From contig NW_027590293.1 of the NCBI RefSeq assembly GCF_964213995.1, forward strand, positions 62,001 through 126,000: DNA of 64,000 bases, read 5' to 3'. A model generated the notes under the pieces. It was not told where the DNA came from and made no database searches. It was given only the letters and a program-made list of their open reading frames with translations. Position numbers and translations under genes: made by a program. This document shows, piece after piece, positions 11,702-62,444 of this stretch. Position 1 is the stretch's first letter; each line of letters opens with the position of its first letter. The DNA is from Mustelus asterias. Taxonomy: Eukaryota.

Positions 11702-12400
11702 CATTTCACCCACACCCAAGGTGAGTTATTCAAATTCCTTTTTTGTCCAGGACAATATGTTCACAATATTTTTAAAACAGAAATTCGACCTCCACATTTG
11801 ATTTCAGGTATTAACATATTCTGTTAGTTTGTTCTTTATTGTTGATGTCAGGCTGGGGTTGTTCCTCTTGGAGCAAAGGAGGTTGAGGGGAGATTTGATA
11901 GAGGTGGACAAGATTCTGACAGGTTTAGATAAGGTGGACAAAGAAAAGCTGTTCCCATTAGCTGATGGGACAAGGACGAGGGGGACATAGATTTAAGGTT
12001 TTGGGTCAGAGATGCAGTGGAGGGGATGTGATAAAGAATATTTTGATGCAGTGAATGGTAATGACCTGGAACTCACTCCCTACGAGGGTGGAGGAAGTGG
12101 AGACAATAAACAATTACAAAGGAAATTGGATGGACATTTGGGAGGGTTTCAAACAGAAATGCTGACTAAATATCTCTGAACTTCCTCACACCCTGTCACT
12201 CTGTGATCCTTGTGAAATTTAAAATCAGGTATTCGCAACAAGACTCAAAGAGCATCAGCCCACTGGAGGCAAAGTCATGAGACCGGCCAGTCCAGCAGAA
12301 AGAAACCCTCTGACTCTCCCCATTGGCCAAGAATGAACAAAATGCAGTCCCGGATGTAATTGAGAGCAGAAACAATAACAGCAGAATCTAATCCCCATAT

Positions 12401-13075
12401 TCACTTGTGAACTTGTTGGTGCGTCCGCAGGGTGGATGAATCACAGAATCCCTTCCCACACTGAGAGCAGGTGAACGGTCTCTCCCCGGTGTGAACTCGC
12501 TGGTGTGATTGCAGGGTGGATAACCGAGTGAATCCCTTCCCACACACGGGGCAGTTGAATGGCCTCTCTCCAGAGTGTACTCGCTGGTGTCTCCGCAGAT
12601 TAGTTAACTGAGTGAATTCCTTTCCACACTGAGAGCAGGTGAATGGCCTCTCCCCAGTGTGAACTCGCTGGTGTGCCCGTAGATGAGATAACTGAGTGAA
12701 TCTTTTGCCACATGCAGAGCAGCTGAATGGCCGCTCTCCTGTGTGAACACGCTGGTGTTTCTGTAGGTTGGATGACTTACTGAATCCCTTCCCACACTGA
12801 CAGCAAGTGAATGGCCTCTCCCCAGTGTGAACTCGCTGGTGTGTCTGCAGGCTTGATATCTGAGTAAATCCCTTCCCACACTGACAGCAGGTGAATGCAC
12901 TCTCACCAGTGTGAACTTGCTTGTGTCTCTGCAGAGTGGATGAATCAGTGAATCCCTTCCCACACACCCAGCAGGTGAACGGCCTCTCCCCAGTGTGGCT
13001 GCGCCGATGAGCTTCCAGTAGAGAGGGCGCTTTGTATCTCTTCCCACAGTCCTCACATTTCCATGGTTTTTCCAT
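12401..13075 (-). CDS. C2H2 ZNF protein Z2 (8 fingers, 224 aa)
   Basis: Open ORF MEKPWKC...HQQVHK with canonical linkers; a SINE is inserted in the 5' part of the exon. Confidence 0.88.
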
Positions 13076-13110
13076 ATTGTCGGTCTCCTCGTATCATTGC
13101 AGGTCAATCA

Positions 13111-13455
13111 GGGCGGCACGGTAGCACAGTGGTTAGCACTGCTGCTTCACAGCTCCAGGGTCCCAGGTTCGATTCCCGGCTCGGGTCACTGTCTGTGTGG
13201 AGTTTGCACATTCTCCTCGTGTCTGCGTGGGTTTCCTCCAGGTGCTCCGGTTTCCTCCCACAGTCCAAAGATGTGCGGGTTAGGTTGATTGGCCAGGTTA
13301 AAAAATTGCCCCTTAGAGTCCTGGGATGTGTAGGTTAGAGGGATTAGCGGGTAAAATATGTGGGGGTAGGGCCTGGGTGGGATTGTGGTCGGTGCAGACT
13401 CGATGGGCCGAATGGCCTCCTTCTGCACTGTAGGGTTTCTATGATTTCTATGATT
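13111..13455 (+). mobile_element. HE1/V-SINE inserted in the 5' part of the Z2 exon
   Basis: Full-length with a (tctatgatt) tail; interrupts a fossil finger. Confidence 0.9.
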
Positions 13456-15336
13456 TGAAGCCTTGTCCACACAGAGAACACGGGTACAGTCTCTCCCCAC
13501 TGTGAATGCTGCAATGTTTTTTTCAGGCTATGTAACTGGTTAAAGCTCTTTCCACTGTTAGTGCACTGGAACACTCTCAGTCGGGTGTGTGTTTGTGTCC
13601 TGGTGTTTTTCCAGTCACACTGCTGCTTAAAATCTTGCAGTGGACAGACCGGTCAAACATTTCTCCTTCCCATTCAGAGGCTGAGGATATTTAGTATCCA
13701 AGGAATCGAGTGACTCTGTCAGATCGAGATGTGATAGTTAAGATTTATCAGTGTGATTCCTCTTCTAATATCCTGTAAAAACAATTTACAAAATTCATCA
13801 CAGTCAGTACAGGATAGAAATTCAGAACAGAGAATTCTAGTTTCTATGGAACATTCTTTCCTCTCTAATTCCCCAAAAGCTGTGAATCTCCATCCCACAC
13901 ACTCTCCCTCCATTCTCACTCTGCTGTATCTAATATTCACCCTCCCAATTCTCCTGAAGGTGCTGATTGAGGCTGATTGACAGATCCATGCTCACTGCTT
14001 CCTGTCCTGGACACAGAGAGCTGAAAATCTCCATGCAGACTGCCAGTCTAACAGAAATATGGCTACATTCTCAACTAAGAATGTTTTAAATGGATTGTAT
14101 CAGTTAGTGAAGATACAGGGGGGTTGTGACTGATGATGATATTGAACTTGCTGCCAACGTGGGTGATCATAGAGTTTTACAGCATGGAAAGAGGCCCTTC
14201 GGCCCATCGTGTTTGTGCTGGCCATCAAGGACCGTTCTATTCTAATCCCATTTTCCACACTTGATGTGTAATCTTGCATGCTATGGCATTGCAAGAGCTT
14301 ATCTAAATTCTTCTTAAATGTTATGATGATTCCCACCTCTACCACCCTTTCAGGCAGTGAGTTCCAGATTCCCACCACCGTCTGAGTGAAAAAGCTTTCC
14401 CTCCCATCTTCTATAAACCTCCTGCCCCTCAACTTAAATCCAGGCCCCTGGTTATTGACCCCTCTACTAAAGAGAAAAGTTCCTTCCTGTCCCCCCTATC
14501 TGTGCCCCTCAGAATTTTATACACCTCAATGTTAGGCTGGATAACTTGGGGTTGTTCTCCTTGGAGCAAAGTAGATTGATAGAGGTGTACAAGGGTACAT
14601 GGAGGTGTCAAAGTTTACATGCTCTGTTTACACGTGTACAAGCTCTGACTATGGGTTATCCAGTCTCGAAACGTTGGTTCTATTCTCTCTCCACAGATGA
14701 TGTCAGATCTGCTGAGATTTTCCAGCATTTTCTGTTTTTATTTCCCTTTCTTTTTCCTTCTCTGCCACCGCTCTGCCCCATCAATAAGACATTGGGACTC
14801 AGAGGGTTGATGCAGTTTGATGGACAAGTTGTCTCCATTCTGAACACTGGGGAACAAGCTCCTCCCACTCATTGACAACATTGCCCTCTACAAACATGGC
14901 GGCCGCACGTGCGCACTGCTTCATATTGCCCCCAATAAAGATGGCGAACGTTAACCCGAAACGAACATGAGGAACTGCAGGCCTGCTCGGTACAAACTGG
15001 GTCCGGGAAGTTCTCTTCCGCATTTTGCGACTCTCACAAGATGCTTACGCAGCGTTTCCACCCACCTGGACGATCCATTGCTCTCTCCGTACCGCCAATC
15101 ACCTCGAACAGATTTCCGAGCCCAAAATAAAAACCGTTTTCCATCGCCATTACTCACACTGCGCATGCTCGAGTCAAAGTTGGCCCCGCCCCTCGTTCGC
15201 TCCTATTGGTGGAGGACCAACCGCTCCAGATCGGTCCTCCAGCTCTGCCCCCTCTTCCCATTGGTCCACGCTGCCGTCAATCAGCCGGGCATTGTGACGG
15301 TGACTTGCTGCTTGTCCAATAATCACAGTGACAGAG

Positions 15337-16393
15337 TCTCAGTGTAACAATGACACACACAGACTCCAATACAATCAGAGTGGGGATGGAGCACAGAGAC
15401 AACACAGCAAAGCACTGACTTACTCTGAGTGTAACAATGACACACACAGGCTCCAATACAATCAGAGTGGGGATGGAGCACAGAGACAACACGGCAAAGC
15501 ACTGACTTACTCTGAGTGTAACAATGACACACACAGGCTCCAATACAGTCAGAGTGGGGATGGAGCACAGAGACAACACAGCAAAGCACTGACTTACTCT
15601 CAGTGTAACAATGACACACACAGACTCCAATACAGTCAGAGTGGGGATGGAGCACAGAGACAACACAGCAAAGCACTGACTTACTCTGAGTGTAACAATG
15701 ACACACACAGGCTCCAATACAATCAGAGTGGGGATGGAGCACAGAGACAACACAGCAAAGCACTGACTGACTCTGAGTGTAACAATGACACACACAGGCT
15801 CCAATACAATCAGAGTGGGGATGGAGCACAGAGACAACACAGCAAAGCACTGACTTACTCTGAGTGTAACAATGACACACACAGGCTCCAATACAATCAG
15901 AGTGGGGATGGAGCACATAGACAACACAGCAAAGCACTGACTTACTCTGAGTGTAACAATGACACACACAGACTCCAATACAATCAGAGTGGGGATGGAG
16001 CACAGAGACAACACAGCAAAGCACTGACTTACTCTGAGTGTAACAATGACACACACAGGCTCCAATACAATCAGAGTGGGGATGGAGCACAGAGACAACA
16101 CAGCAAAGCACTGACTTACTCTGAGTGTAACAATGACACACACAGGCTCCAATACAATCAGAGTGGGGATGGAGCACAGAGACAACACAGCAAAGCACTG
16201 ACTTACTCTCAGTGTAACAGTGACACACACAGGCTCCAATACAATCAGAGTGGGGATGGAGCACAGAGACAACACAGCAAAGCACTGACTTACTCTGAGT
16301 GTAACAATGACACACACAGGCTCCAATACAATCAGAGTGGGGATGGAGCACAGAGACAACACAGCAAAGCACTGACTTACTCTCAGTGTAACA
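15337..16393. repeat. 87-bp minisatellite, 12 copies plus a partial
   Basis: Unit starts at 15337, 15424 ... 16381; units are near-identical. Confidence 0.97.
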
Positions 16394-19300
16394 AATACAA
16401 TGTTTGTTCAAATAATAAGAGTCACGTTGCAGTATGTTAGCGAACACAGCATTAGATCCAATGTAATGGTAATACAGTCAGTATCTAGTGCACCAGAACC
16501 AAAGTTTAAGTTTCATTTGATAGTGTGAGTGAGTCATGGTCTATTGAGATAATGTATTTAGATTCCGGTGTGTGTTACTCTGCCACTGTCAGTATCAGAC
16601 AATAACCTGTCTGTTATTCCAATTCTGCTGTATTTTACATTCTGCTGTATTTCTGCTGTACTTTAACCTGGTGTTGTTAAAACTCTTACTGTATTTTACA
16701 ACTGCAGCTCCTGGGGCTGATTGGAGTCTGGTATAATCATCACAAAGGTTGGTTTCAGTGTCTCTGAGGTCATTTTAACTGCAGGTAATCTGACAAGGGA
16801 GACAAGAGGCCCAACAAACATTTGATTACAATAGGAGGACAAGGTGTAAGGGAGCAATGATATTTTAAGGTGTCTGTGTTATGGTGAGTGTCACTGGGAG
16901 GTGAGTGATAAAATAGAAGTGGAAACATCACGACAGATACATGTGACTGACTCGGCCTGACTGAGAGCTGTTATAGTCAAGGCGAGAATAATGAGGACAT
17001 GGCGAACTCCAGGGATTTCTGCAGTTCTCAAGTTACACACAGGAAACAGATGTGACAGCTCATCAAACCCAATGGTTTAATCTTCTGTTTGAGACACATT
17101 ATGACCGAAAAGATCAAACATTAAAACCTTAGGAGAGAAACATTCAGAATGTCACAAAGATGAGTGAACTGTCCAATTAATCCCATTCACCAGAACTCTG
17201 CCAATTTACCTTCTACACGTATTTATCCAATTCCCTTTGAAAGTTACTATTAAACCTGCTTCTAGCACCTGTCAGTTTGCGCATTCCAGATCATATCAAG
17301 TTATTGTGTGAAAAATTCTCCTTATCACCCCCTCCAGTTCTGTTGTCAATTATGTTAAATCTCTGTATCCTCTGCTCACAGACCCTCCTGCACCTGGGAA
17401 ATAGATTCTCTCCATCTTCCTGCTCCTGGGAGATAATTTCTCTCCATTGACACTATCATAAATCATTTGTCATTTTAAACATCTCTATTAAATCGCCCCA
17501 TCACATTCCCCAATCTAAGATGGATAACCCATGTTTTTCCTGCCCTGAAGAATTATATGGACTCAAAATGTTAACTGTTTCTCTCTGAACAGATGCCGCC
17601 GGATCTGCCGGGTTTTTCTGCTTTTCACCCTGTTTTTCCTTCTATAATCAATCAGAAACTCTTCATGATTTTGAACATCTCGATTAAATAGGAACACACA
17701 GAGCCTGAGAAAGATACAGAGCAAAGGAGAGACAGAAAGACTGAGAGAAAAATTGAGAAAGATTTTAAAAAGCAGAAAGTTGAGGTGGTCAAAGATAAAA
17801 GCTGAGAATCAGAGGAAACAAGCAATACAGAGAGAATGATATACAATATAAGGGAGCAGGCTATCAGTTCCCAGCTATGGGGAGCAGACGGAACTCAGTA
17901 ACTGATCCACAGACACAGCTGGTTATATCTGCGAATGGAAACTCTGAACAGAAATAACTGGCTCATTTGTAAATGTCACCACAATGTGACCTGTGTGACT
18001 CTGCCCTGACTCTGTGGACAGATAAAGGCCGCATTGACAGATGTTCTCACCAGATTGTGGTTCCTGGATTTATTTTCTGCTCAGAAGTGAGATGTGCGTT
18101 TTTGAACCGGCAGCAGAGAAGTTGTGTTACCTGAGAATGAAACAGCCGGTGTCAGTTTGATGTTATCACCGTGAACAGTCTTCCTGCCTGTGAGGGTGAA
18201 CTCACTCTGACAGCATCAAGAACAACCACACAGATTGCTGCCGGTCTCCACATTACATTCAGCTCCATTCCCATTTTAAACAATGAAGAAAGGAGATTAT
18301 TTGGATTTTTAACACATTCACTGAATTGGGAGATGGACTGAGGGTCATCACTGGGAGAAATGAGGAGGAATTAGAGAACAAATAAGTTTTCCCAAAGAGG
18401 GTTCTTAGAAAAGAGGAGATTTAAAGTGAGTGAGGGCCTGTCAGAGGAAGTGGGAGAGAGAAACAGAGAGGATTGAATCTTCATCAATTAGATGTTTTCT
18501 CAGACAGCAAAGAGAGATGAAGTTTGTTTGTGCTTTTTCAGAGAGAGGTAATGAGAGAGAGAAAACAATGAATAAGTTTAAGCAGATCTGAAATAGGAAG
18601 GTTAAATGAGTGAGTGTTTGAAAGAAAGGTAGAGAGACATTAAGTGATGAACACAGTATCTGAGAGGAGAGAGGTTAAGTGAATGTGAGAGAGGAGCGAG
18701 GTTATAGAGTGTAAGAGAGGTGGAAGGTGAGGTAAGTGTGAGTGAATGCCTGGAGAGAAAGAGCGATGTTCAGTGAGTGTTAGAGAGATGAGAGAGGTTA
18801 AGTGATTGAGTTTCTGAGGGAGAGGAGATGCTAAGTGAATGAATGTCTGAGAGGAGAGCAGGTTCACACCCAGGGGTCACTGAGAATGATCAAAATAAGG
18901 AGATCACCCAAAAAACTACCAACAGGAAACTTCAGCTGAACACATCACTCATTCTTAAATGGTCAGTCAGGGCTCTGTTGCTGCTCAGCTTCTCTCTGTT
19001 CTGTTTATAATGGTTAAAGGCTGATAGGAGTGAGGTTTATTTGAAAGGATAGTGTATGGGAAGCACACATCAACAAAACTGAGAATTTTTGGATACACAC
19101 TGCAGCTCCTTCTCTATCTGGGAATCAAATTGTTGTCTCATTGTCCCAGCAGTTAACAGGCTCCTTTGAACGTCTCCAGCTGCTACTTTAATGCAGACTT
19201 CAACCAATTTATTTGAAGCCAGTTTCTGTTCAATAAACCAGGACTGATGCACACACACATTAAAATGTTTTAGACTTTTTTTCATTCTCAGTCTGGAAAC

Positions 19301-19959
19301 CTAAACCTGCCGTTTCACTCTCAGTCAGGAATAGATCCCAGTTTTACACCAATCTTTGACAGCATGTTTCCAGCATTCACCATTGTTCTTCCTGACTCGA
19401 AACACAGTTGTAAAGGAGCTTCTTTTCCGTGTCTAGGAGGTCTGAACCATGGAAAAGAATGACTGGGACACATTTCTTACACACCTCAGGATTCACCCAC
19501 ACGGGGACTTTGCTGTCAGTGAAAAGTGACGAAAAAGACCAAAGTGCTGTTTGTCCCTCTCAGCGAGACCCTGAAGGACTGGGTCAAGAATGAAGTTCTG
19601 TTCCTACTGTATGATCCTCCCTCAGATTGCCCTTTCTGAGCTCCAGCCTGGTGACGTTAAACACTCAAATGGAAAAGTCAAAAATCTACAACAATGATTC
19701 AATCAAATGTCTATTTCACATTTATTCAGAATATCAAACCTCAACAGAAGAAAAAAATCAGAGAGAAGATGATTCAGACCTGGATATGATTAACAGCATC
19801 AATAAGTGTAGAATCCAAACCTGGCAGTCGTTTGTGAACTCGCCGGTGTGTTAGCAGGTGGGATGACTGAATAAATCCCTTTCCACAGACATTACAGGTG
19901 AACGGCCTCTCCCCAGTGTGAACTCGCTGGTGATTCAATAGGTTGGGTGAAAGAGTGAA

Positions 19960-21003
19960 TCACTTCCCACACACGGAGCAAGTGAATGGCCTCTCCTCAC
20001 TGTGAACCTGCTGGTGTGTCAGGAGATTGTATGAACGGGTGAATCCCTTCCCACATTCAGAGCAGGTGAATGGTCGATCTCCTGTATGGAGTTGCTGGTG
20101 TATCAGAAGGTTGAGTGAATTAATGAATCCCTTCCCACAGTCTGAGCAGGTGAATGGCCTCTCCCCAGTGTGAATTCTCTGGTGGTTCAATAGGGCAGAT
20201 GGACGGCTGAATCCCTTCCCACACACACAGCAGGTGAAGGGCCTCTCCCCAGTGTGAATTCTCTGGTGGTTCAATAGGGCAGATGGACGGCTGAATCCCT
20301 TCCCACACACACAGCAGGTGAAGGGCCTCTCCCCAGTGTGAATTCTCTGGTGGTTCAGTAGGGCAGATGGACGGCTGAATCCCTTCCCACACACACAGCA
20401 GGTGAAGGGCCTCTCCCCAGTGTGAATCCTCTGGTGGTTCAGTAGGGCAGATGGACGGCTGAATCCCTTCCCACACACACAGCAGGTGAATGGCCTCTCC
20501 CCAGTGTGAGTATATTGGTGCATTAACAGATCCTTTTTGTTTTTAAAACTCTTCTCATAGTCAGAACAATTAAAAAGTTTGTCAGAGTGAACAAGTTGAT
20601 GTGTCTGCAGGTGGGATGACTGAATGAATCCTTTCCCACACACAGAGCAGGTGAACAGTCTCTCCCCAGTATGAATGCATTGGTGTGTCAGCAGATCTTT
20701 TGTGCATTTAAAACTCTTCCCACAGTCAGAACATGTAAACAGTCTCTCATCAGTGTGAACAAGTTGGTGTGTCACAATGTGGGATGAGTGAGTGAATCCC
20801 TTCCCACACACAGGGCAGGTGAACAGCCTCTCCCCAGTGTGAACCCGTTGGTGTGTCAGAAGGTTGTATGAATGGGTGAATCCCTTCCCACAAACAGAGC
20901 AGGTGAACGGTCTCTCCCCAGTGTGACTACACCAATGAACTTCCTGTTGTGATGGGAAACCGAATCCTTTCCCGCAGTCCACACATTTCCACGGTTTCTC
21001 CAT
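19960..21003 (-). CDS. C2H2 ZNF Z3 (12 fingers, one degenerate, premature stop); paralog of Z7
   Basis: ORF from the ATG at 21003. GGA>TGA at 19960-19962 cuts off the last two fingers and the tail, which remain readable to ~19774. Finger 6 has C>Y. Confidence 0.8.
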   Translation of the reverse strand: MEKPWKCVDCGKGFGFPSQQEVHWCSHTGERPFTCSVCGKGFTHSYNLLTHQRVHTGERLFTCPVCGKGFTHSSHIVTHQLVHTDERLFTCSDCGKSFKCTKDLLTHQCIHTGERLFTCSVCGKGFIQSSHLQTHQLVHSDKLFNCSDYEKSFKNKKDLLMHQYTHTGERPFTCCVCGKGFSRPSALLNHQRIHTGERPFTCCVCGKGFSRPSALLNHQRIHTGERPFTCCVCGKGFSRPSALLNHQRIHTGERPFTCCVCGKGFSRPSALLNHQRIHTGERPFTCSDCGKGFINSLNLLIHQQLHTGDRPFTCSECGKGFTRSYNLLTHQQVHSEERPFTCSVCGK

Positions 21004-22636: not shown

Positions 22637-22686
22637 CCGCCATTGAGGCTGCATGTGGGAGGCCGGCAGGGATTGTGATCGGGGAG

Positions 22687-22825
22687 TGATGTCACAATGG
22701 AATGGGTGAGGGTGTGACGTCACAATGGAATGGGTGAGGGTGTGACGTCACAATGGAATGGGTGAGAGTGTGAGGTCACAATGGAATGGGTGAGAGTGTG
22801 AGGTCACAATGGAATGGGTGAGGGT
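22687..22825 (+). repeat. 28-bp tandem repeat x5 containing a CRE palindrome
   Basis: tgacgtcacaatggaatgggtgagggtg units. Confidence 0.92.
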
Positions 22826-28498: not shown

Positions 28499-29845
28499 AT
28501 GGAGAAACCATGGAAATGTGGGGACTGTGGGAAGAGATACAGAGCCCCATCAGAGCTGGAAGATCATCGGCACAGCCACACTGGGGAGAGACCATTTACT
28601 TGCTCTCAGTGTGGGGAGGGATTCACTCGGGTATCCCAGCTGCAGAGACACCAGCGAGCTCACACTGGGGAGAGGCCCTTCACTTGCTCTCAGTGTGGGA
28701 AGGGATTCACTCGGTCATCCAGCCTGCAGGCACACCAGCGAGTTCACACTGGGGAGAGACCGTTCACCTGCTCTCAGTGTGAGAAGGGGTTCAGTCAATT
28801 GGCTAACCTGCAGAGACACCAGCGAGTTCACACTGGGGAGAGGCCGTTCACCTGCTCTCAGTGTGAGAAAGGGTTCAGTCATTTAGCTAACCTGCAGAGA
28901 CACCAGCGAGTTCACACAGGGGAGAGACCTTTCACCTGCTTTCAGTGTGGGAAGGGATTCACTGATTTATCCACCCTGCGGAGACACCAGCGAGTTCACA
29001 CTGGGGAGTGGCCGTTCACCTGCTCTATGTGTGGGAAGGGGTTCAGTCAATTAGCTGAGCTGCAGACGCACCAGCGAGTTCACACTGGGGAGAGACCATT
29101 CACCTGCTCTCAGTGTGAGAAGGGGTTCACTGATTTATTCACCCTGCGGACTCACCAGCGAGTTCACACTGGGGAGTGGCCGTTCACCTGCTCTGAGTGT
29201 GAGAAGGGGTTCAGTCAATTATCTAACCTGCAGAAGCACCAGCGAATTCACACTGGGGAGAGACCGTTCACCTGCTCTCATTGTGGGAAGGGATTCACTG
29301 ATTTATCCACTCTGCGGAGACACCAGCGAGTTCACACTGGGGAGTGGCCTTTCACCTGCTCTATGTGTGGGAAGGGGTTCAGTCAATTAGCTAAGCTGGA
29401 GACCCACCAGCGAATTCACACTGGGGAGAGACCGTTCACCTGCTCTCAGTGTGGGAAGGGATTCACTGATTTATTCACCCTGCGGACTCACCAGCGAGTT
29501 CACACTGGGGAGTGGCCGTTCACCTGCTCTCAGTGTGAGAAGGGGTTCAGTCAATTATCTAACCTGCAGAAGCACCAGCGAGTTCACACTGGGGAGAGAC
29601 CGTTCACCTGCTCTCAGTGCGGGAAGGGGTTCAGTCAATTATCTAACCTGCAGACGCACCAGCGCCTTCATACTGGGGAGAGACCGTTCACCTGCTCTCA
29701 GTGTGGGAAGGGGTTCAGTCAATTATCCACCCTGCGGACACACCAGCGAGTTCACACTGGGGAGAGACCATTCACCTGCTCTCAGTGTGGGAAGGGTTTC
29801 AGAGTTTCATCCGCCCTGCTGAGACACCAAAATGCTCATGAGTGA
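28499..29845 (+). CDS. C2H2 ZNF Z6 (16 fingers, 448 aa)
   Basis: Uninterrupted ORF from accATGG with 16 x 28-aa fingers. Confidence 0.92.
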
Positions 29846-31147
29846 TTCCAGGGGTTGGATTCTGCTGTTATTGTTTCTGCTCTCAATTACATCCAGGACT
29901 GCATTTTGTTCATTCTCACAGTTGGTCAATGGGGAGGGTCGGAGGGTTTCTTTCTGCTGGACTGGCCGGTCTCATGACTTTGCCTCCAGTGGGCTGATGC
30001 TCTTTGAGTCTTGTTGCGAATACCTGGTTTCAGATTTCACACGGATCACAGAGTGACAGGGTGTTAGGAAGTTCAGAGATTTTTAGTCAGCATTTCTGTT
30101 TGAAACTCCCCCAGATGCCCATCCAATTTCCTTTGTAATTGTTTATTGTCTCCACTTCCTCCACCCTCGTAGGCAGCAAGTTCCAGGTCATTACCATTCA
30201 CTGCATCAAAATATTCTTCCTCACATCCCCCCTTCCTCTCTGACCCAAAACCATAAATCTGTGTCCCCCTCGTCCTTCTCTCGTCAGCTAATGGGAACAG
30301 CTTTTCTTTGTCCATCTTATCTAAACCTGTCAGAATCTTGTCCACCTCTATCAAATCTACCCTCAACCTCCTTGCTCCAAGGGGAACAACCCTAGCCTGA
30401 CATTGACAATAAAGAACAAACTAACAGAATATGTTAATACCTGAAATCAAATGGGAATGTTTAATTTCTGTTTTAAAGAAATCATGAATATATTGTCCCG
30501 TACAATAAAGGGATTTGAATAACTCAGCTTGAGTGCAGTTGAATGAAATGTCTCAATCGCGTATCCACCCACAGTCGAGAGGAAGTGTGGAATGTGTAGC
30601 TGGAAATCCCTCCCTAACAGCACTGTGGGTGTACTTACACCTTCGGCATTATAGCAGTTCAGGAAGGCAGTGTTGGCGCTGATCGTGGCCGAGGCAGCTA
30701 CATACAGCCACATATTCTGTTATAACTGAAGGACTGCAGATTAAATGTGCGGCATTATGGGACTGGACTATCTTGACCACATTCCTGTGACTGCTCAGTT
30801 TCTGCAATCATGAACCATTAAAGCTGCTTAGCAGGGTCCTGACAGAGGACCTGGTGAGAATATTTACTCAGAATGAGTTAGAATGAAACTTATTCCAGGA
30901 CCGGCTGGTGTTCAGTGGCTGAGATTCCCGAATCTGTAAAAAGGGGGTCTGACCAGTGGTAGGTAGTCCGGTAAGAAGCGTTCTCATGCATTATTTAAAT
31001 TATTTTATCATGAAGTTGTGATCAGAACTGTGAGGGACTTGTAACCCAATAGTTGTTGAATTGACGGTAAACTCCAAGTAGCACTGGACTGAAAAGGGGG
31101 TCTGACCAAGAAGTGAAGTGATCTCAGGCATTGTTTAAATTACATCA

Positions 31148-31601: not shown

Positions 31602-31604
31602 GTT

Positions 31605-31677
31605 GTTTCTGTAGTGAAGTGGTTGTCACGTTTGCCTGACACGCGAAAGGTCCCCGGGTCAGAACCGGGCAGGAATG
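31605..31677 (+). tRNA. tRNA-Val-derived copy, anticodon GAC, probable pseudogene
   Basis: Aligns over 73 nt to vertebrate tRNA-Val (GTTTCCGTAGTGTAGTGGTTATCACG...). Stems pair, but the T-loop/B-box reads GGGTCAGAACC and there is no clear poly-T terminator. Confidence 0.75.
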
Positions 31678-32504
31678 TTAATTTGTTAATTCCAGCATCT
31701 GAAAGTGGGAAGGGGGAGGAAGGTGAGCTGTTGCCTGCCTGCCTGCTGTCCGGCCTGCCTGCCGTCTGGCCTGCCTGTCTTCCGTCCGTCCGCCCACTGG
31801 AGGGTGCTCTCTCCCTGGAGGGAGAGAGGACACGGAGTGACTTTCTTTCTTTTTTCTTTCCATCTATGGGAGGGAGGACTGCACGTTTCAACATCGAGGG
31901 ACTGAGTGGTTGGGCTGGTGCCCTCATCATCAGAAGGTCGGTGCCTGAAAGGGATGGGGGGGTGAAGTAAATTCAGACTGTTTTTTCCATCTGCGGGCGG
32001 GCGGGCGGGCGGGCGAAGACACCCCGGACTTGAACTGTTTGCGCCCAAAAGGGCTGGAGGAGTAAAGTCCCCCACCCACTGCTGCTGCCCCCAACACCGG
32101 CACCCCCTCCCCTCTTTCCCCCTGACTGGGGCACCGGCCCCCCTCCGTGCCTTGTCCCTCGTCCTCCCTCCTGCTCCTCCGACCTCCTCTCTCGCTCCGG
32201 GGAGAGAGCACCTAGATCCCCATCCACCTACCCTACCCTCCCTTATTTTTCCCTCCTCTTATACGCCCTGCCGTGGCAGAGCCTTCTCGGCCCACCTATG
32301 CGGGCGTGGCGGCTGCCAGAGCCCCCGCCGCTCCCAAGGCCCTGCCGTCTTTTTCGTTGCTCACGCGGCAGCTCGGGGTGAAGTGCTACGCCCACCCCGA
32401 CATGTCCATCGAGGCCTGTGTCAAGGCAATGGCTGGGGTTGTCGGCCCCTCAGCCATTGTCGCGGCCTCTAAGATGTACGGCCGGGCCGTATTCTTTTTG
32501 AAGG
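31678..32504 (+). mobile_element. Tx1-clade non-LTR retrotransposon, 5' UTR and ORF1 N-terminus (truncated)
   Basis: PTYAGVAAA...LTRQLGVKC...IEACVKAMAGVVGPSAIVAASKMYGRAVFF closely resembles Xenopus Tx1 ORF1p. The 5' boundary is uncertain. Confidence 0.8.
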
Positions 32505-32800
32505 CCACCCACCCGCCACATTTATCATTCCCCGCGCGCCGCCCTCTACCTTGTATTGTTCTCGCTTCCAAGTTGAAACCGTCCGTCCGCCGCCGCCATT
32601 ACCCGCACTGCGCATGCTTCAGGTCCCGCCCCTCATTCACTCCGATTGGTTGGAGGACCAGCCGCTCCCGCTCGGTCCTCCAGTCCCGCCCCCTCTTCCT
32701 ATTGGTCCGGAGCTGGCGTCAATCAGCTCCCGGGCATTGTGATGTGGAGCATGCGCAGTGTCATTGTTGGCCTTGGCGCTTGTTTGTCCCGGAGAAGCGG
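32505..32800 (+). promoter_or_regulatory. ZNF CpG promoter module (paralogs at 15100-15300 +, 21960-22370 -, 55925-56323 +)
   Basis: CpG-rich, with NRF1-like TGCGCATG, GC boxes, two ATTGG (CCAAT) boxes and YY1-like CGCCAT; conserved in four copies upstream of ZNF genes. Confidence 0.75.
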
Positions 32801-33749
32801 AGTCAGCGTTAGGCGGTGGCTGGGAGGATTTGGAAACACTTTGTGGATCCGCAAACCCTTCAGAATCATTGTCAGCTCCCTGGTTTGCAGCTGCGGGGCT
32901 TCTCCCTCCCTCCCGGGAACAGGCCCAGGTTAACGGCCCCATCCTGGCTCAGCCACTGGAGGATGGTTCACATCAGAGGATGGGGGAGGGGGACAATAAA
33001 TAAGAGGTTACACTTTGGCCTCAAATCAATGAGGACTCTGATCTCTGGGAAGGAAGGAAACCCTGGGAGGTGGGCGGGGAGGATTCACAAACACCCGCTG
33101 GAGGCCCCAACACCCCCAATAAGACCCATTGGTTTTATTGTCAGTCTGCAGACAGGAGCTGGAGAACTGAACCCAGACAGAGTAGAGGGAGGGAGAAAAC
33201 TGGGAGTGGAGGAAAGAAATGGTAGAGATGGGTTTGGATTTCAGCCCAGGGAAGAGGGAGAGTGTGTGGGACGGAGATTTACAGATTTGGGGGAACAAGA
33301 GAGGAAAAAATGTTCCAGACGAACTAGAATTGTCTGTTCAGAGTTTGTATCGTGTTCTGACAGTGATGACTTTTCTAAACTGTTTTTACAGGATATTGGA
33401 AGTGAAAGATTGGCAGACAGAAAATTCAAACCGGACATCACATCTGACAAAGTCATTCAGTTCCTTCGGAGCTGAATATCATTGGTCTTTGAATATAGAA
33501 AGAGAAATATTTGTCTGTTCTGCCTGTGGGCAAAGAAATTAAACATCACTGTGACTGGAAAAGCATCGAGACAAACACACACCCGAGTGAGAGTGTTCCA
33601 GTGAACTGAATGTGGAAAGAGCTTTAACCAGTTACACAGCCTGAAAAAACATCACAGTTCACAGCAGGGTGAAACTACGTGTATGTTGTGTGTGTGGATG
33701 AGGCTTGAACTGATCATCCAACCTGGAGAAACACAAGGACACCCGCACC

Positions 33750-34730
33750 ATGGAGAAACCGTGGAAATGTGTGGATTGTGGGAAGGGATTCGGTTTCCCA
33801 TCACAACTGGAAGTTCATCGGCGCAGTCACACTGGGGAGAGACCGTTCACCTGCTCCGTCTGTGGGAAGGGATTCACCCATTCATACAACCTTCTGACTC
33901 ACCAACGGGTTCACACTGGGGAGAGGCCGTTCACCTGTCCTGTGTGTGGGAAGGGATTCACTCGCTCATCCCACATTGTGACACACCAACTTGTTCACAC
34001 TGATGAGAGAATGTTTACATGTTCTGACTGTGAGAAGAGTTTTAAATGCAAAAAGGATCTGCTGACACACCAACGAATTCACACTGGGGAGAGACCGTTC
34101 ACCTGCTCTGTGTGTGGGAAAGGATTCATTCAGTCATCCCACTTGCAGACACATCAACTTGTTCACTCTGATAACAAACTTTTTAATTGTTCCCACTGTG
34201 CGAAGAGCTTTAAAAATAAAAAGGATCTGCTAACGCACCAATATGCTCACACTGGGGAGAGGCCATTCACCTGCTGTGTGTGTGGGAAGGGATTCAGCCG
34301 TCCATCTGCCCTATTGAACCACCAGAGAATTCACACTGGGGAGAGGCCCTTCACCTGCTCAGACTGTGGGAAGGGATTCACTCGTTCATCCAACTTATTG
34401 AATCACCAGCGAGTTCACACTGGGGAGAGGCCGTTCACCTGCTCTGTGTGTGGGAAGGGATTCAGTCAGTCATCCAACCTGCTGACACACCAGAAAGTTC
34501 ACAGTGCGGAGAGGCCACTTACCTGCTCTGTCTGTGGGAAGGGATTTTCTCATTTATCTTATCTTCTGAAACACCAGCGAGTTCACACTGGGGAGAGGCC
34601 GTTCACCTGTAATGTCTGTGGAAAGGGATTTATTCAGTCATCCCACCTGCTAACACACCAGCGAGTTCACAAACGACTGCAAGGTTTGGATTCTACTCTT
34701 AATGATGCTGTTAATCATATCCAGGACTGA
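33750..34730 (+). CDS. C2H2 ZNF Z7 (11 fingers plus an 18-aa C-terminal tail)
   Basis: Intact 326-aa ORF with an upstream CpG promoter module and a splice acceptor at 33390-33391. Confidence 0.92.
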
Positions 34731-35376
34731 ATCGTGTTCACTCTGACAGTCTTCATCCGTTGAGGTTTAATATTCTGAATAAATATGAAATAGACCAGCT
34801 TTGTTTTTTAAAATTGTTGTAGATTTTTGTCTTTCCCACCTGACTGTTTAACATCACCAGGCTGGAGCTCAGAAAAGACAATCGGGGGTGGATCATATGG
34901 CAAACAGGACGCAGTCCTTCAGGGTCACAGAGGGACAAACAGCACTTTGCTCTTCCTCGTCTCTCTTCACGACAGCAAAGTACCCGTGTGGTTTAATCCT
35001 GAGATGTGCAAGAATCTCAGTCACTCCCTTCTATGTTTCAGCGCTCCTAGACCAGGAACAGAAGTTCCTTTACAACTGTGTTTAGAGTCAGGAAGAACAA
35101 CAGTGAATGCTGGAAGCATGCTGCTAAATCAGAGATTGGTGCAAAACTGGGATCTGTTCCTGACTGAGAGTGAAATGGCAGGATTAGATTTCCAGACTGA
35201 AAATGCAGAAAAGTCTAAAATATTTTAATGTGTTTGTGTGTCAGTGCCAGTTTATTGAACAGAAACCAGCTCAAAATAAATTGGTTAAAGTCTGCATTAA
35301 AGTAGCAGCTGGAGAGTTCAAAGGAACCTGTTATCTGCTGGGACAATTAGACAACAATTTGATTCCCACTGAGACC

Positions 35377-37404: not shown

Positions 37405-37842
37405 ATGTATCTCCTGTGTGCTTTACTGATAACAATGACCACGCTGCCCGGTGAGTCTGAGCTCAGATCCTCAGTGTGTGTTTCATGGGTTATATTTGTT
37501 CACAGATTTCTCACACATTCTACATTTTGTTGCAGGAATCAATGGCCAAGATTCAGTTTCCCAGGACCCGGCTGAATTAACGGTTCAGGAAGGATTGAAC
37601 GTAATAGTGAATTGTAATTACACAACAACGGATGCTTTTCCAAATCTCTTCTGGTACATCCAGTATCCCGGGGAAGCTCCGAGATATTTACTGCAGAAAT
37701 ATAGCACGGGGGGCGGAGAAAAGTCTCCAGATTTCCCTGACCGGTTTTCTGCTGATTTGGACAAGGACAAGAAAACAGTTCCTTTAAATATCACTGGGGT
37801 CCATGTCTCTGACTCTGCCGTGTATCACTGTGCGCTGAGCCC
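37405..37842 (+). CDS. T-cell receptor alpha/delta-type V gene segment (leader exon 37405-37450, intron 37451-37535, V exon 37536-37842)
   Basis: 46-nt hydrophobic leader exon MYLLCALLITMTTLP-G with gtgagt donor and ttgcag acceptor. The Ig V fold has CNY, LFWYIQYPGEAP, RFS and DSAVYHCALS, followed by an RSS. Confidence 0.93.
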
Positions 37843-37881
37843 CACACTGCTACAGAGGCGCAGTGAGCCCGTACAAAAACC
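37843..37881 (+). other. Recombination signal sequence, 23-bp spacer
   Basis: CACACTG + 23 nt (ctacagaggcgcagtgagcccgt) + perfect nonamer ACAAAAACC, directly after the V exon. Confidence 0.93.
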
Positions 37882-40362: not shown

Positions 40363-42270
<1,908 letters not shown>

Positions 42271-47535: not shown

Positions 47536-48649
47536 CCTCTATAACTCCATGACTAAATCAACTGTCTGCTGAAAGGGTTAACTTTTCTACAGAACCTAAA
47601 GGGGTGGGGAGTGAGAGAAGAAACTTGGCACACAGTTACATCACTTTACATAATTTTTAAAAACTTCTCTAACAACAAAACAAAGTTGATTTTAAACTTT
47701 ATCTATGAATTCTTTTGTTCTCTTCCTCAACCTAATTATTTTAATTTGATCAGTTTTTGTTAGGGATGGGTAACTTCTGTTCTTTATAAACTGGTTCACT
47801 CATTTTGTTAATTCTTCATGGGCTCGGAGAATCAGAACCCAGACTTTATCATCCTTATCATTTTTCTCCTTCTGCCACCACTCCCTCTGTTTTGAAGGAG
47901 GGTCATGGGGATTCCAATCAGAACTAATCATTTCATCAGAAGAGTAAAATACTGCAGATACTGGAATCTGAAACAAAAACACAAAATGCTGGAAAATCTC
48001 AGCGGGTCTGACAGCACCTGTGAAGAATGGAGCCAAAGTTTCAATACTGGATGACCCTTCATAACAACTCTTATGAAGTGTCATTCAGACTCAAAATGTT
48101 GGCTCTATTCTCTAATCATTTTATCGATACATTTCTTGTTCTTAGTTTTAGGTTTAAGGTGAGAGGGGAGAGATACAAAAGGGTCCAGAGGGGCAATTTT
48201 TCACTCAGATGGTGGTGAGTGTCTGGAACAAGTTGCCAGAGGCAGTGGTAGAGGTGGGTGCAATTCTGTCTTTTAAAAAGCATTTAGACAGTTACATGGG
48301 TAAGATGGGTATAGAGGGATATGGGCAAAATACGGGCAATTGGGACTAGCTTAGTGGTAAAAACTGAGCGGAATGGACAAGTTGGGCCGAAGGGCCTGTT
48401 TCCATGTTGTAAACCTCTATAACTTCCTAACATCCTGTCACTCTGTGATCCTTGTGAAATCTAAAAACCAGGTATTCGCAACAAGACTCAAAGAGCATCA
48501 GCCCACTGGAGGCAAAGTCATGAGACCGGCCAGTCCAGCAGAAAGAAACCCTCCGACCCTCCCCATTGACCAACTGTGAGAATGAACAAAATGCAGTCCT
48601 GGATATAATTGAGAGCAGAAACAATAACAGCAGAATCCAACCCCTGTCA

Positions 48650-49827
48650 TCACTCGTGAACTTGTTGGTGTCTCAGCAGGTGGGATGAAACTCTGAATCC
48701 CTTCCCACATTGAGAGCAGGTGAACGGCCTCTCCCCAGTGTGAACTCGCTGGTGTGTCTGCAAGTTGGATGACTGAGTGAATCCCTTCCCACACTGAGAA
48801 CAGTCGAATGGTCTCTCCCCAGTGTGAACTCGCTGGTGTCTCTGCAGGTGGGATGACTGAGTGAATCCCTTCCCACACTGAGAGCAGGTGAACGGCCTCT
48901 CCCCTGTGTGAACTCGCTGGTGTGTCCGCAGATCAGATGAGTTAGTGAATCCCTTCCCACACTGAGAACAGATGAATGGTTTCTCCCCAGTGTGAACTCG
49001 CTGGTGTATTCGCAGGCTGGATAACAGAATGAATCCCTTCCCACACTGAGAGCAGGTGAACGGCCTCTCCCCTGTGTGACGTAGCTGGTGTCTCTGCAGG
49101 TCGGCTGACTGAGTGAATCCCTTCCCACACTGAGAGCAGGTGAACGATCTCTCCCCAGTGTGAACTCGCTGGTGTGTCCGCAGGATGGATGACTGAGTGA
49201 ATCCCTTCCCACACTGAGAACAGTTGAATGGCCTCTCCCACTGTGAACTCGCTGGTGTCTCTGCAGGAGGGATGACCGAGTGAATCCCTTCCCACACTGA
49301 GAGCAGGTGAACAGCCTCTCTCCTGTGTGAACGTGCTGGTGTTTCTGCAAGCTGGAAAACTGAATGAATCCCTTCCCACACTGAGAGCAGGTGAATGGTT
49401 TCTCCCCAGTGTGAACTCGCTGGTGTATCCGCAGGCTGGATAACAGAATGAATCCCTTCCCACACTGAGAGCAGGTGAATGGCCTCTCCCCAGTGTGAAC
49501 TCGTTCATGTGTCCGCAGGGTGGATAATTGAGTGAATCCCTTCCCACACTGAGAGCAGGTGAACGGCCTCTCCCCAGTGTGAACTCGCTGGTGTCTCTGC
49601 AGGTCGGATAACTGACTGAATCCCTTCTCACATTGAGAGCAGGAAAATGGCCTCTCTCCAGTGTGAACTTGCTGGTGTCTCTGCAGGAGGGATAATCGAG
49701 TGAATCCCTTCCCACATTGAGAGCAGGTGAATGGTCTCTCCCCAGTGTGGCTGCGTCGATGAGCTTCCAGCTTAGATGGGGCTCTGTATCCCTTCCCACA
49801 GTCCCCACATTTCCATGGTTTCTCCAT
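48650..49827 (-). pseudogene. ZNF Z9 (14 fingers) with a single 1-bp frameshift after finger 7
   Basis: Two overlapping ORFs. The linker at ~49238 reads cacagtgggagag instead of cacactggggagag. This is a true frameshift or an assembly error. Confidence 0.85.
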
Positions 49828-55776: not shown

Positions 55777-55915
55777 CCCTCACCCATTCCATTGTGACAT
55801 CACACTCTCACCCATTCCATTGTGACGTCACACTCTCACCCATTCCATTGTGACATCACACTCTCACCCATTCCATTGTGACCTCACACTCCCACCCATT
55901 CCATTGTGACGTCAG
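55777..55915 (-). repeat. 28-bp CRE tandem repeat x5 (inverted paralog of 22687)
   Basis: cacccattccattgtgacgtcacactct units. Confidence 0.92.
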
Positions 55916-56324
55916 GGCTTCACTCTCCGATCACAATCCCTGCCGGCCTCCCACATGCAGCCTCAATGGCGGCAGTCAGCCCGGGTCTAACACTACAAGC
56001 TGCCGCTCCATTTGGTACAAAGGGGGGGAACCGGGAAGTTCATTTCCGGGGATTGGGTTTGAACAACATGCTTACAAAGTCTCTCCACCCACCCGCCACA
56101 TTTATCATTCCCCGCACGCCGCCCTCTACCTCGGATTGATCTCGCTTCCGAGTTAAAACCGTCCGTCCGTCGCCATTACCCGCACTGCGAATGCTTCAGG
56201 TCCCGCCCCTCCTTCACTCCGATTGGTTGGAGGACCAGCCGCTCCAGCTCGGTCCTCCAGACCCGCCCCCTCTTCCTATTGGTCCGGAGCTGCCGTCAAT
56301 CAGTCCCCGGGCATTGTGATGTGG

Positions 56325-61192: not shown

Positions 61193-62035
61193 ATGGAGAA
61201 ACCGTGGAAATGTGGGGACTGTGGGAAGGGTTGCAAAACCCCCTCTGAGCTGCAAACCCATCGACGTATTCACACTGGAGAGAAGCCGTACACCTGTTCT
61301 GTGTGTGGGAAGGGATTCACTCGGTTATATCATCTGCAGCGACATCGACTGGTTCACACTGGAGAAAGAGCGTTCATCTGCTTTGAGTGTGGGAACGGAT
61401 TCGCTCATTTACCCGATCTGCAGAGACACCAGCGCGTTCACACTGGAGAGAGACCATTCACCTGCTTGGTGTGTGGGAAAGGATTTATGCAGTTATCCAA
61501 TCTGTCGAAACACAAAGTCACTCACAGCAATGAGAAACCCTTTAAATGCTCTGACTGTGGAAGTAGTTTCAAAAGCTCTCGGGAACTGATGATCCACCAG
61601 CGGATTCACACTGGGGAGAGACCGTTCAGCTGCTCTCACTGCACAAAGACATTTAGAACATCATCCCACCTGCGGGAGCACCAGCGAATTCACACCAGGG
61701 AGAGACCGTTCACCTGCTCTGTGTGTGGGAAGGGATTCACTCATTCATCCAGCCTGCTGAGTCACAATCTCACTCACACCCAGGAGAGACCCTTTAAATG
61801 CTCTGACTGTGGCAGTGGTTTCAAAAGTTCTCGGGATCTGGTTATACACCAGCGCATTCACACTGAGGAGAGACCGTTCAGCTGCTCTCACTGCACAAAG
61901 AGATTTAGAACGTCATCCAGCCTGCAGGAGCACCAGCGAGTTCACACTGGGGAGAGACCGTTCACCTGCTGTTTGTGTGGGAAGGGATTCACTCAGTCAT
62001 CCAGCCTGCGGAGACACCAGCGAGTTCACAAATGA
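61193..62035 (+). CDS. C2H2 ZNF Z11 (10 fingers, 280 aa)
   Basis: Intact ORF; shares the [15 protein letters not shown] finger types with Z1 and Z5. Confidence 0.92.
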   Translation: MEKPWKCGDCGKGCKTPSELQTHRRIHTGEKPYTCSVCGKGFTRLYHLQRHRLVHTGERAFICFECGNGFAHLPDLQRHQRVHTGERPFTCLVCGKGFMQLSNLSKHKVTHSNEKPFKCSDCGSSFKSSRELMIHQRIHTGERPFSCSHCTKTFRTSSHLREHQRIHTRERPFTCSVCGKGFTHSSSLLSHNLTHTQERPFKCSDCGSGFKSSRDLVIHQRIHTEERPFSCSHCTKRFRTSSSLQEHQRVHTGERPFTCCLCGKGFTQSSSLRRHQRVHK

Positions 62036-62444
62036 TGACAGGTGTTGGATTCTGCTGTTATTGCTGCTATTAATCACATCCAGGACTGAACCATGTTCAT
62101 TCTGACAGTTGGTGAAGTGGGAGGGTCGGACGGTTTCTTTCTGCTGGACTGGCCGGTCTCACAACTTTGCTTCCAGTGGGCTGATGCTCTTTGAGCCTGG
62201 GAGAGCACATTTCCACTGAAATGATCCACAAAAGCTGATGAAGGACATTTATTTTATCCTGGATAGTAAATAGTGTTTTTCCGACCACTACAGTTAGATC
62301 TGAAATAAATACAGAAAGGACTGGAAAAACGCAGCAGGTCTGGCAGCATCTCTGGAGAGAGAAACAGAGTTAATATTTCACACTACTGGATTGGAGTCAA
62401 TCTAGTAAATCTCCTCTGAACTGCTTCCATGGTATTTATAAAAT

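Follow-up and report, generated by a model that had tools for sequence, protein, structure and literature searches.

The closest described systems are the KRAB-ZNF genes of tetrapods, the FiNZ-ZNF genes of cyprinids and the KRAB-like ZNF genes of ray-finned fish, which form clustered, rapidly duplicated zf-C2H2 arrays with fingers under purifying selection. The accessory domains of the tandem ZNF families of fish are described as N-terminal, with FiNZ and a KRAB-like domain proposed for ray-finned fish (PMC10547256, PMC11603059); the word "shark" does not occur in the main text of either paper. According to a whale shark study, cartilaginous fishes have lost KRAB-box families (PMC8455134). Two further systems concern the ends of genes: stop-codon shifts, described as adding or removing protein C-termini (PMC4494051), and programmed UGA readthrough, for which the vertebrate context is given as UGA-CUAG (10.1101/2021.04.18.440353).

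The window, the whole stretch of 64,000 nucleotides of Mustelus asterias DNA that was analysed, contains 11 C2H2 finger clusters (Z1 to Z11) with reverse-transcriptase fragments among them. Its genes share the clustered, duplicated finger arrays and the purifying selection on fingers with the families above. Those families have their accessory domain at the N-terminus; here, a minority of copies has a C-terminal tail of 18 residues as the candidate, found in the gene Z7. As in the stop-codon shifts, a point change at the stop converts 3'UTR into C-terminus or the reverse; in contrast to the cases in PMC4494051, the states differ between paralogs of a huge family and not between alleles or orthologs, and the direction of the change is only a lean. 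The best explanation, with a probability of about 0.6, is that the tail serves as a real short C-terminus of Z7 subfamily proteins, and that most copies, those with TGA, carry it as dead 3'UTR, which duplication and gene-end exchange have spread. The coordinates of the gene, its tail and the corresponding gene ends are given in the table.

Table. Features of Z7 and of the gene ends of the other copies in the window.
Feature	Position	Strand	Description
Z7 coding sequence	33750..34730	+	326 aa; 11 C2H2 fingers and 18-residue tail, without KRAB
Z7 tail	34674..34730	+	CGA (Arg, 34674-76), then 17 codons, then TGA (34728-30)
Z7 5' exon part	33393..33749	+	from a putative splice-acceptor-like site, predicted from the sequence only, to the ATG; decayed finger sequence
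Gene-end module, 81 nt	34671..34751	+	found in every subfamily; extends to 21 nt beyond the stop of the tail
Hexamer AATAAA, poly(A)-signal-like	34778..34783	+	at equal offset in Z7 and Z3 only
Z3 tail	19774..19830	-	CGA type; untranslated, since a premature TGA at 19960-19962 ends Z3 two fingers earlier
Z11 TGA-TGA and tail-like 3'UTR	62033..62089	+	similarity with other TGA copies runs to ~62200
Z8 TGA-TGA and tail-like 3'UTR	40819..40874	+	1-nt deletion
Z6 TGA and UTR	29843..29977	+	3-nt insertion, without second stop, 43-codon open frame
Z9 TGA-TGA and UTR	48518..48652	-	42-codon open frame; gene frameshifted upstream, so that TGA-TGA is not the stop of the main frame
Z2 TGA and UTR	12275..12403	-	41-codon open frame, 6-nt deletion
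Z5 TGA and 6 tail codons	26756..26776	-	then CT microsatellite
Z1 TGA and 2 tail codons	6195..6203	+	then unrelated sequence

A Pfam profile search finds PF00096 in 11 stretches of Z7 (E 4e-68), and the fingers are joined by TGERP-type linkers into a tandem zf-C2H2 array; the first residues of the open reading frame already lie within a finger. The preliminary description had called the family KRAB-less, which agrees with the present searches: KRAB is absent from the best 25 of 36 families listed for Z7 and was found in none of 13 plus-strand frames (of 15 with 25 or more codons) upstream of or overlapping the Z7 start. The gene end described for Z7, HK followed by Arg and 17 further residues, is as claimed. 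The HK gene end is kept in nine copies of the window, Z4 and Z10 being truncated and lacking it, and Z7 is the only one of the nine in which the tail is translated. A GC-rich promoter-like element at 32500-32870 lies upstream of Z7 and Z3, with look-alikes at ~22257, 56085-56324 and 15145-15297.

Other features lie between the finger clusters. A V-set segment (PF07686, E 1e-17) at 37439-37880 (+) is located between two zinc-finger genes and ends in a heptamer-23 nt-nonamer-like recombination signal; it resembles a T-cell receptor V gene. A tRNA-Val with the anticodon GAC at 31604-31678 (+) has a low Rfam score of 45 bits and may be a pseudogene or repeat-derived. A tandem array at 15337-16394 consists of 12.2 copies of an 87-bp unit with 97% matches and is open in several frames, and arrays of a related 28-bp unit lie in opposite orientation at 22682-22825 and 55779-55914.

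In seven of the nine window copies with the HK gene end, the first codon of the tail is TGA instead of CGA. The tails reported earlier for Z11, Z6, Z9 and Z2 are present as written, and the length difference of one codon (3 nt) between the subfamilies is confirmed. Z3 had been said to carry the same tail as Z7, but it differs at 4 of 57 nucleotides, three of them changing the amino acid, and is untranslated. Z8 had been named as the only frameshifted member; its 1-nt deletion is real, but it is not the sole broken tail, as Z5 passes into a microsatellite and Z1 diverges.

The gene ends are far more similar than chance would allow (blastn E values of 1e-9 to 1e-26 for Z7 against five other copies), and the homology is nested, with 81 nt in all subfamilies, ~170 nt in the TGA copies and 400 to 600 nt within subfamilies. 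Among the TGA copies the similarity continues for ~110 nt beyond the second stop. Z11 and Z6 are identical at 50/57 positions of the tail and at 81/90 positions of a stretch lying well beyond it; the corresponding values are 53/56 and 85/90 for Z11 and Z8, and 50/57 and 87/90 for Z6 and Z2. The peptide is not the conserved unit, as the conservation ignores its end. On the 5' side, decayed finger sequence (~350 nt) and 95 nt of intron sequence are likewise common to the copies, with the part corresponding to the Z7 5' exon homologous across 11 aligned copies and broken at sites that differ by copy. Since this broken relic is shared by all copies as well, shared flanks are the rule here. The TGA stops of the relic stand at shared positions, whereas its frameshifts are copy-specific, and in a gene model from Heterodontus, P0003, a similar stretch is translated as the start of the protein; family members may thus formerly have possessed a more extended N-terminal part. 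A 350-nt repeat lies within the 5' exon part of Z2 directly before the ATG, at 13130-13480 (-).

The trees of the two flanks, both unrooted and with Z4 omitted from the 5' tree and Z1, Z4, Z5 and Z10 from the 3' tree, disagree. Z2 groups with Z6 and Z9 in the 3' tree (98/99) but not in the 5' tree, and the distance between Z8 and Z11 is 0.05 at the 3' end against 0.23 at the 5' end. Z2 (12275-14050, -), Z8 and Z11 appear chimeric, the closest relatives of their 5' flanks and 3' ends being different. This discordance fits an exchange of gene ends via the finger repeats, which would be the cause of gene-end homogeneity. Exchange accounts only in part for the lower number of indels on the 3' side (3 in 170 nt, compared to 24 in 350 nt of the 5' relic; P=0.012) and for the two of three indels there that keep the frame.

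Conservation beyond the peptide could also mark a cis-acting element, in DNA or RNA, that covers 80 to 170 nt of the proximal 3'UTR and serves, for instance, mRNA stability or co-regulation; the peptide would then be a by-product of a three-base-periodic, T-rich sequence. The absence of gaps in ~90 nt past the tail among the five TGA copies, together with the lower indel number than in the 5' relic, agrees with such an element, as does the repeat-like texture of the tail: Z7 and Z11 have 9 or 10 consecutive T-ending codons, and a 3-nt slip in such a run is likely. Transcriptome-like contigs, whose RNA status is a guess, bridge the stop and the UTR. Against this, an Rfam scan of the whole window gives the tRNA as its sole match, with no SECIS and no element at the module, and folding z-scores range from -1.35 to +1.26 in seven copies, without a conserved hairpin. 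Double changes are found in 0 of 14 and 1 of 56 consensus base pairs. A module-spanning hairpin first suggested by folding collapsed once all seven copies were included. The first 81 nt between Z7 and the TGA types also diverge like the 5' flank (0.20-0.31 compared to 0.23-0.27). A cis-acting element is considered improbable, and it does not exclude a real C-terminus, with which it is compatible.

The preliminary description further proposed that the peptide was switched off by a CGA/TGA change or is reachable by UGA readthrough; in the strong form of this proposal, the peptide is maintained behind the TGA and produced by readthrough as a regulated effector. Like programmed readthrough genes, the TGA copies show a UGA stop followed by an open frame, and the frame is kept in four of the five full-length TGA tails. 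Unlike such genes, they lack the leaky UGA-CUAG context in 5 of 5 copies, the contexts starting with UGA-U or UGA-A, and frequently carry a double stop (3 of 5). The tail's own stop is lost in Z6, Z9 and Z2, so that readthrough there would add 41 to 43 residues and not 17 or 18, and the tail is destroyed in Z1, Z5 and Z8. The codon pattern is neutral. Counted from the clade node over 16 unambiguous tail codons of Z11, Z8, Z6, Z9 and Z2, 12 changes are distributed 4/4/4 over the codon positions, and 4 are synonymous compared to 2.9 expected (P=0.30, five copies); the expected coding signature downstream of the stop is thus missing. The fingers of Z7 and Z3, as a control, show a pN/pS of 0.26 and 0.35 (Fisher P=1e-4). 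An all-pairs pN/pS of 0.55 in frame 0 of the tail was set aside because it counts a single deep branch ten times. The frame of the indels offers little evidence. In the tail, one of two indels is a multiple of three, compared to 3 of the 24 indels of the 5' relic (P=0.23); with the 6-nt deletion of Z2, which lies past the usual second stop, the count rises to two of three (P=0.04). The 3-nt insertion of Z6 falls in the run of T-ending triplets and is probably an easy slip.

Contigs of four public runs, representing three organisms and three studies, were aligned to 61990-62330 with a cut-off of 80%, and 1,422, 545, 457 and 924 contigs were placed per run. Contigs similar to Z7 are ~80% like the Z11 stretch, which is at the cut-off, and those similar to Z6 are clipped at 62063, so neither type is fairly counted. 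The TGA is near-fixed among the Z11-like contigs in all four runs, and the best 40 of 164 difference rows contain no change at the TGA (62033-35) or the second stop. Across the four runs, T accounts for 30, 50, 76 and 87% of the depth at the middle base of the second codon, which means that double stops are frequent in some of them; in run X21 only 30% of the depth alters the middle base of the second TGA. The indels listed (12 of 16) all lie outside the tail, at 62116-62284, which would agree with a maintained peptide; chance alone nonetheless accounts for this placement (P=0.27, with ~7 events taken as independent), and the clipped Z6-type contigs are unscored. Readthrough in the TGA copies is unlikely by these sequence features, and a peptide maintained behind the TGA as a readthrough effector is the least credible of the readings. 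The tail behind the TGA behaves like ordinary inherited non-coding DNA and not like a hidden switch. Duplication and end-swapping will leave open frames downstream of the stop in many paralogs, and such frames do not point to readthrough.

The same contigs concern the size of the family. In run X21 the summed depth over the tail is 64,000 to 116,000, compared to 12 to 133 for eight single contigs listed; this suggests thousands of family copies, although summed depth is not a copy number. The bins at 62134-62157, past the peptide, are clearly deeper than the tail bins in two of the four runs (X21 and X6). The highly conserved UTR stretch of ~110 nt that follows the tail (within 62090-62330), gap-free in five copies, is present in contigs of the three organisms, and 13 contigs of run X6 diverge at 62112, close to the divergence point of Z7 itself.

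The evidence for a tail that once was coding lies on the deep branch that joins the Z7/Z3 and TGA nodes. Over 16 codons, 3 of 6 changes on this branch are synonymous, compared to 1.2 expected (P 0.036-0.068). With the first Leu codon included, 5 of 8 are synonymous (P 0.003-0.008), and the other two frames give P 0.74-1.0; this codon is a stop in three of the five TGA copies, which leaves its state at the node uncertain, with Z1 and run X6 favouring Leu. When the window majority takes the place of the parsimony node, P is 0.07-0.18. Within the 21 nt that follow the second stop, only one site changed on this branch, which points to conservation at the nucleotide level. The small counts suggest protein-level selection on the tail along this branch.

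The second line of evidence is the shape of the Z7 tail. Its hydrophobic moment is 0.50; 0.2% of 5,000 shuffles and 1.8% of 2,855 window peptides have a higher value. Z7 is the only one of six tails that is amphipathic along its full length, and none of the four TGA-type tails tested exceeds the background (shuffle P 0.10-0.67). An AlphaFold single-sequence model shows one helix (46-72) running from the last finger through the tail, with a mean pLDDT of 51, which is low confidence; the tail helix probably continues the helix of the last finger. The label of effector motif given to the tail earlier is that of a candidate, with the helix shape as its sole backing. The tail may resemble the short amphipathic co-regulator-binding helices of the SIN3-interaction or HLH helix 2 type. 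Pfam and PDB sequence searches did not bear this likeness out: the 20-aa tail gives no Pfam family at E<=1 and no PDB sequence at E<=10, both weak tests for so short a query.

Together, the synonymous excess and the amphipathicity of Z7 partly support the portion of the earlier proposal in which the tail once was coding, and which makes it a possible old end of the protein; the portion concerning a peptide maintained behind the TGA is not supported. The strongest competitor is an accident, in which the family always ended in HK and a stop, and a TGA-to-CGA change in the ancestor of Z7 and Z3 extended the reading frame to the next stop, adding a functionless tail whose synonymous excess and helix shape arose by chance. 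An open run of 18 codons is ordinary, because 45% of 14,614 sampled starts outside the finger arrays reach it (median 15 codons). The prevalence of TGA in the window and its near-fixation among Z11-like contigs fit such an accident, and stop loss that creates new C-termini is already described (PMC4494051). The tails of Z7 and Z3 differ by three amino-acid changes and one silent change, with a pN/pS of 0.96; three of the four differences map to the broken Z3, and the one on the Z7 branch is non-synonymous. An accident would not explain why the synonymous excess of the deep branch is confined to frame 0. The amphipathicity of Z7 after correction for six tests cuts less clearly, as P is ~0.012 by shuffles but ~0.11 by the window null. 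CpG-to-TpG change is also faster than its reverse, contrary to the direction that the accident requires. On balance, the accident is possible but unlikely.

No homolog or family was found for the tail outside the window, which is in line with an accident, although the searches are weak for 18 residues. A protein search with Z7 residues 287-326 yielded two matches among three candidates, both to fingers only. The tail alignment gave one match among 7,337 candidates and one among 1.84 billion representatives; both were rejected since they align to the UTR frame past the second stop and not to the tail. Of 8,000 proteins scored against the whole of Z7, 5,508 matched; among the 120 listed, most come from tetrapods, four are named chondrichthyan, and none ends in the tail. 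The structure-atlas search returned finger clusters, or unnamed clusters below 0.9, and no tail homolog. Five window proteins are absent from the protein collection searched. The tail DNA patterns have no matches in metagenomes, viral contigs or prokaryote genomes, eight metagenome DNA matches having been rejected as chance alignments over 20-21 nt only. No account of the tail appears among the papers listed by the literature searches.

The named relatives sharing the start motif of Z7 come from sharks and rays. They belong to the chondrichthyan "zinc finger protein 239/436/ZFP2-like" models: P0092 (Pristiophorus) opens with MEKPWKC like the window genes, P0057 (Heptranchias) shows a near-identical start and similar finger types, and P0003 has the N-terminus that resembles the 5' relic. 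In contrast to Z7, the tail is absent from the ends of these three and of three other named chondrichthyan matches.

Under the best explanation, the course of events would be as follows. A very large KRAB-less tandem C2H2 family would multiply by DNA duplication, with gene ends swapped through recombination within the finger arrays. In the subfamily of Z7 and Z3 the codon after the last finger is CGA, and most other copies have TGA there, a single base change separating the two states. The next 17 codons of Z7 would form a genuine protein ending, probably a helix, and selection at the protein level would have acted on the Z7-type ending for a large part of the period after the subfamilies diverged. 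In the TGA copies, the same DNA would be the start of an ordinary 3'UTR, inherited and homogenised, drifting without regard to codons and without useful readthrough.

The direction of the change is a lean toward loss, by CpG decay from CGA to TGA in a founder, which is slightly favoured over gain by stop loss because CGA-to-TGA decay is seen within the Z1 fingers and CpG-to-TpG is the faster mutational direction. The term "ancestral", as used for the tail before, is subject to the same lean, the trees being unrooted and without outgroup. In a wider reading, chondrichthyan tandem ZNFs ancestrally had the Z7-type tail as their C-terminal effector helix in place of KRAB, and one CpG transition removed it in a founder whose expansion gave rise to finger-only genes, probably thousands of them. 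This is doubtful and should be held as speculation. If true, a few effector-bearing ZNFs would stand among a mass of effector-less DNA binders, with the tail kept as a fossil in their 3'UTR.

The shared gene end of 80 to 170 nt offers a practical tag for counting the members of the family. The main lesson is a cautionary one, namely that open frames behind the stops of paralogs do not indicate readthrough. A C-terminal helix in one shark subfamily, if real, would be a small and directly testable candidate for the source of regulatory output in the large KRAB-less ZNF families of fish.
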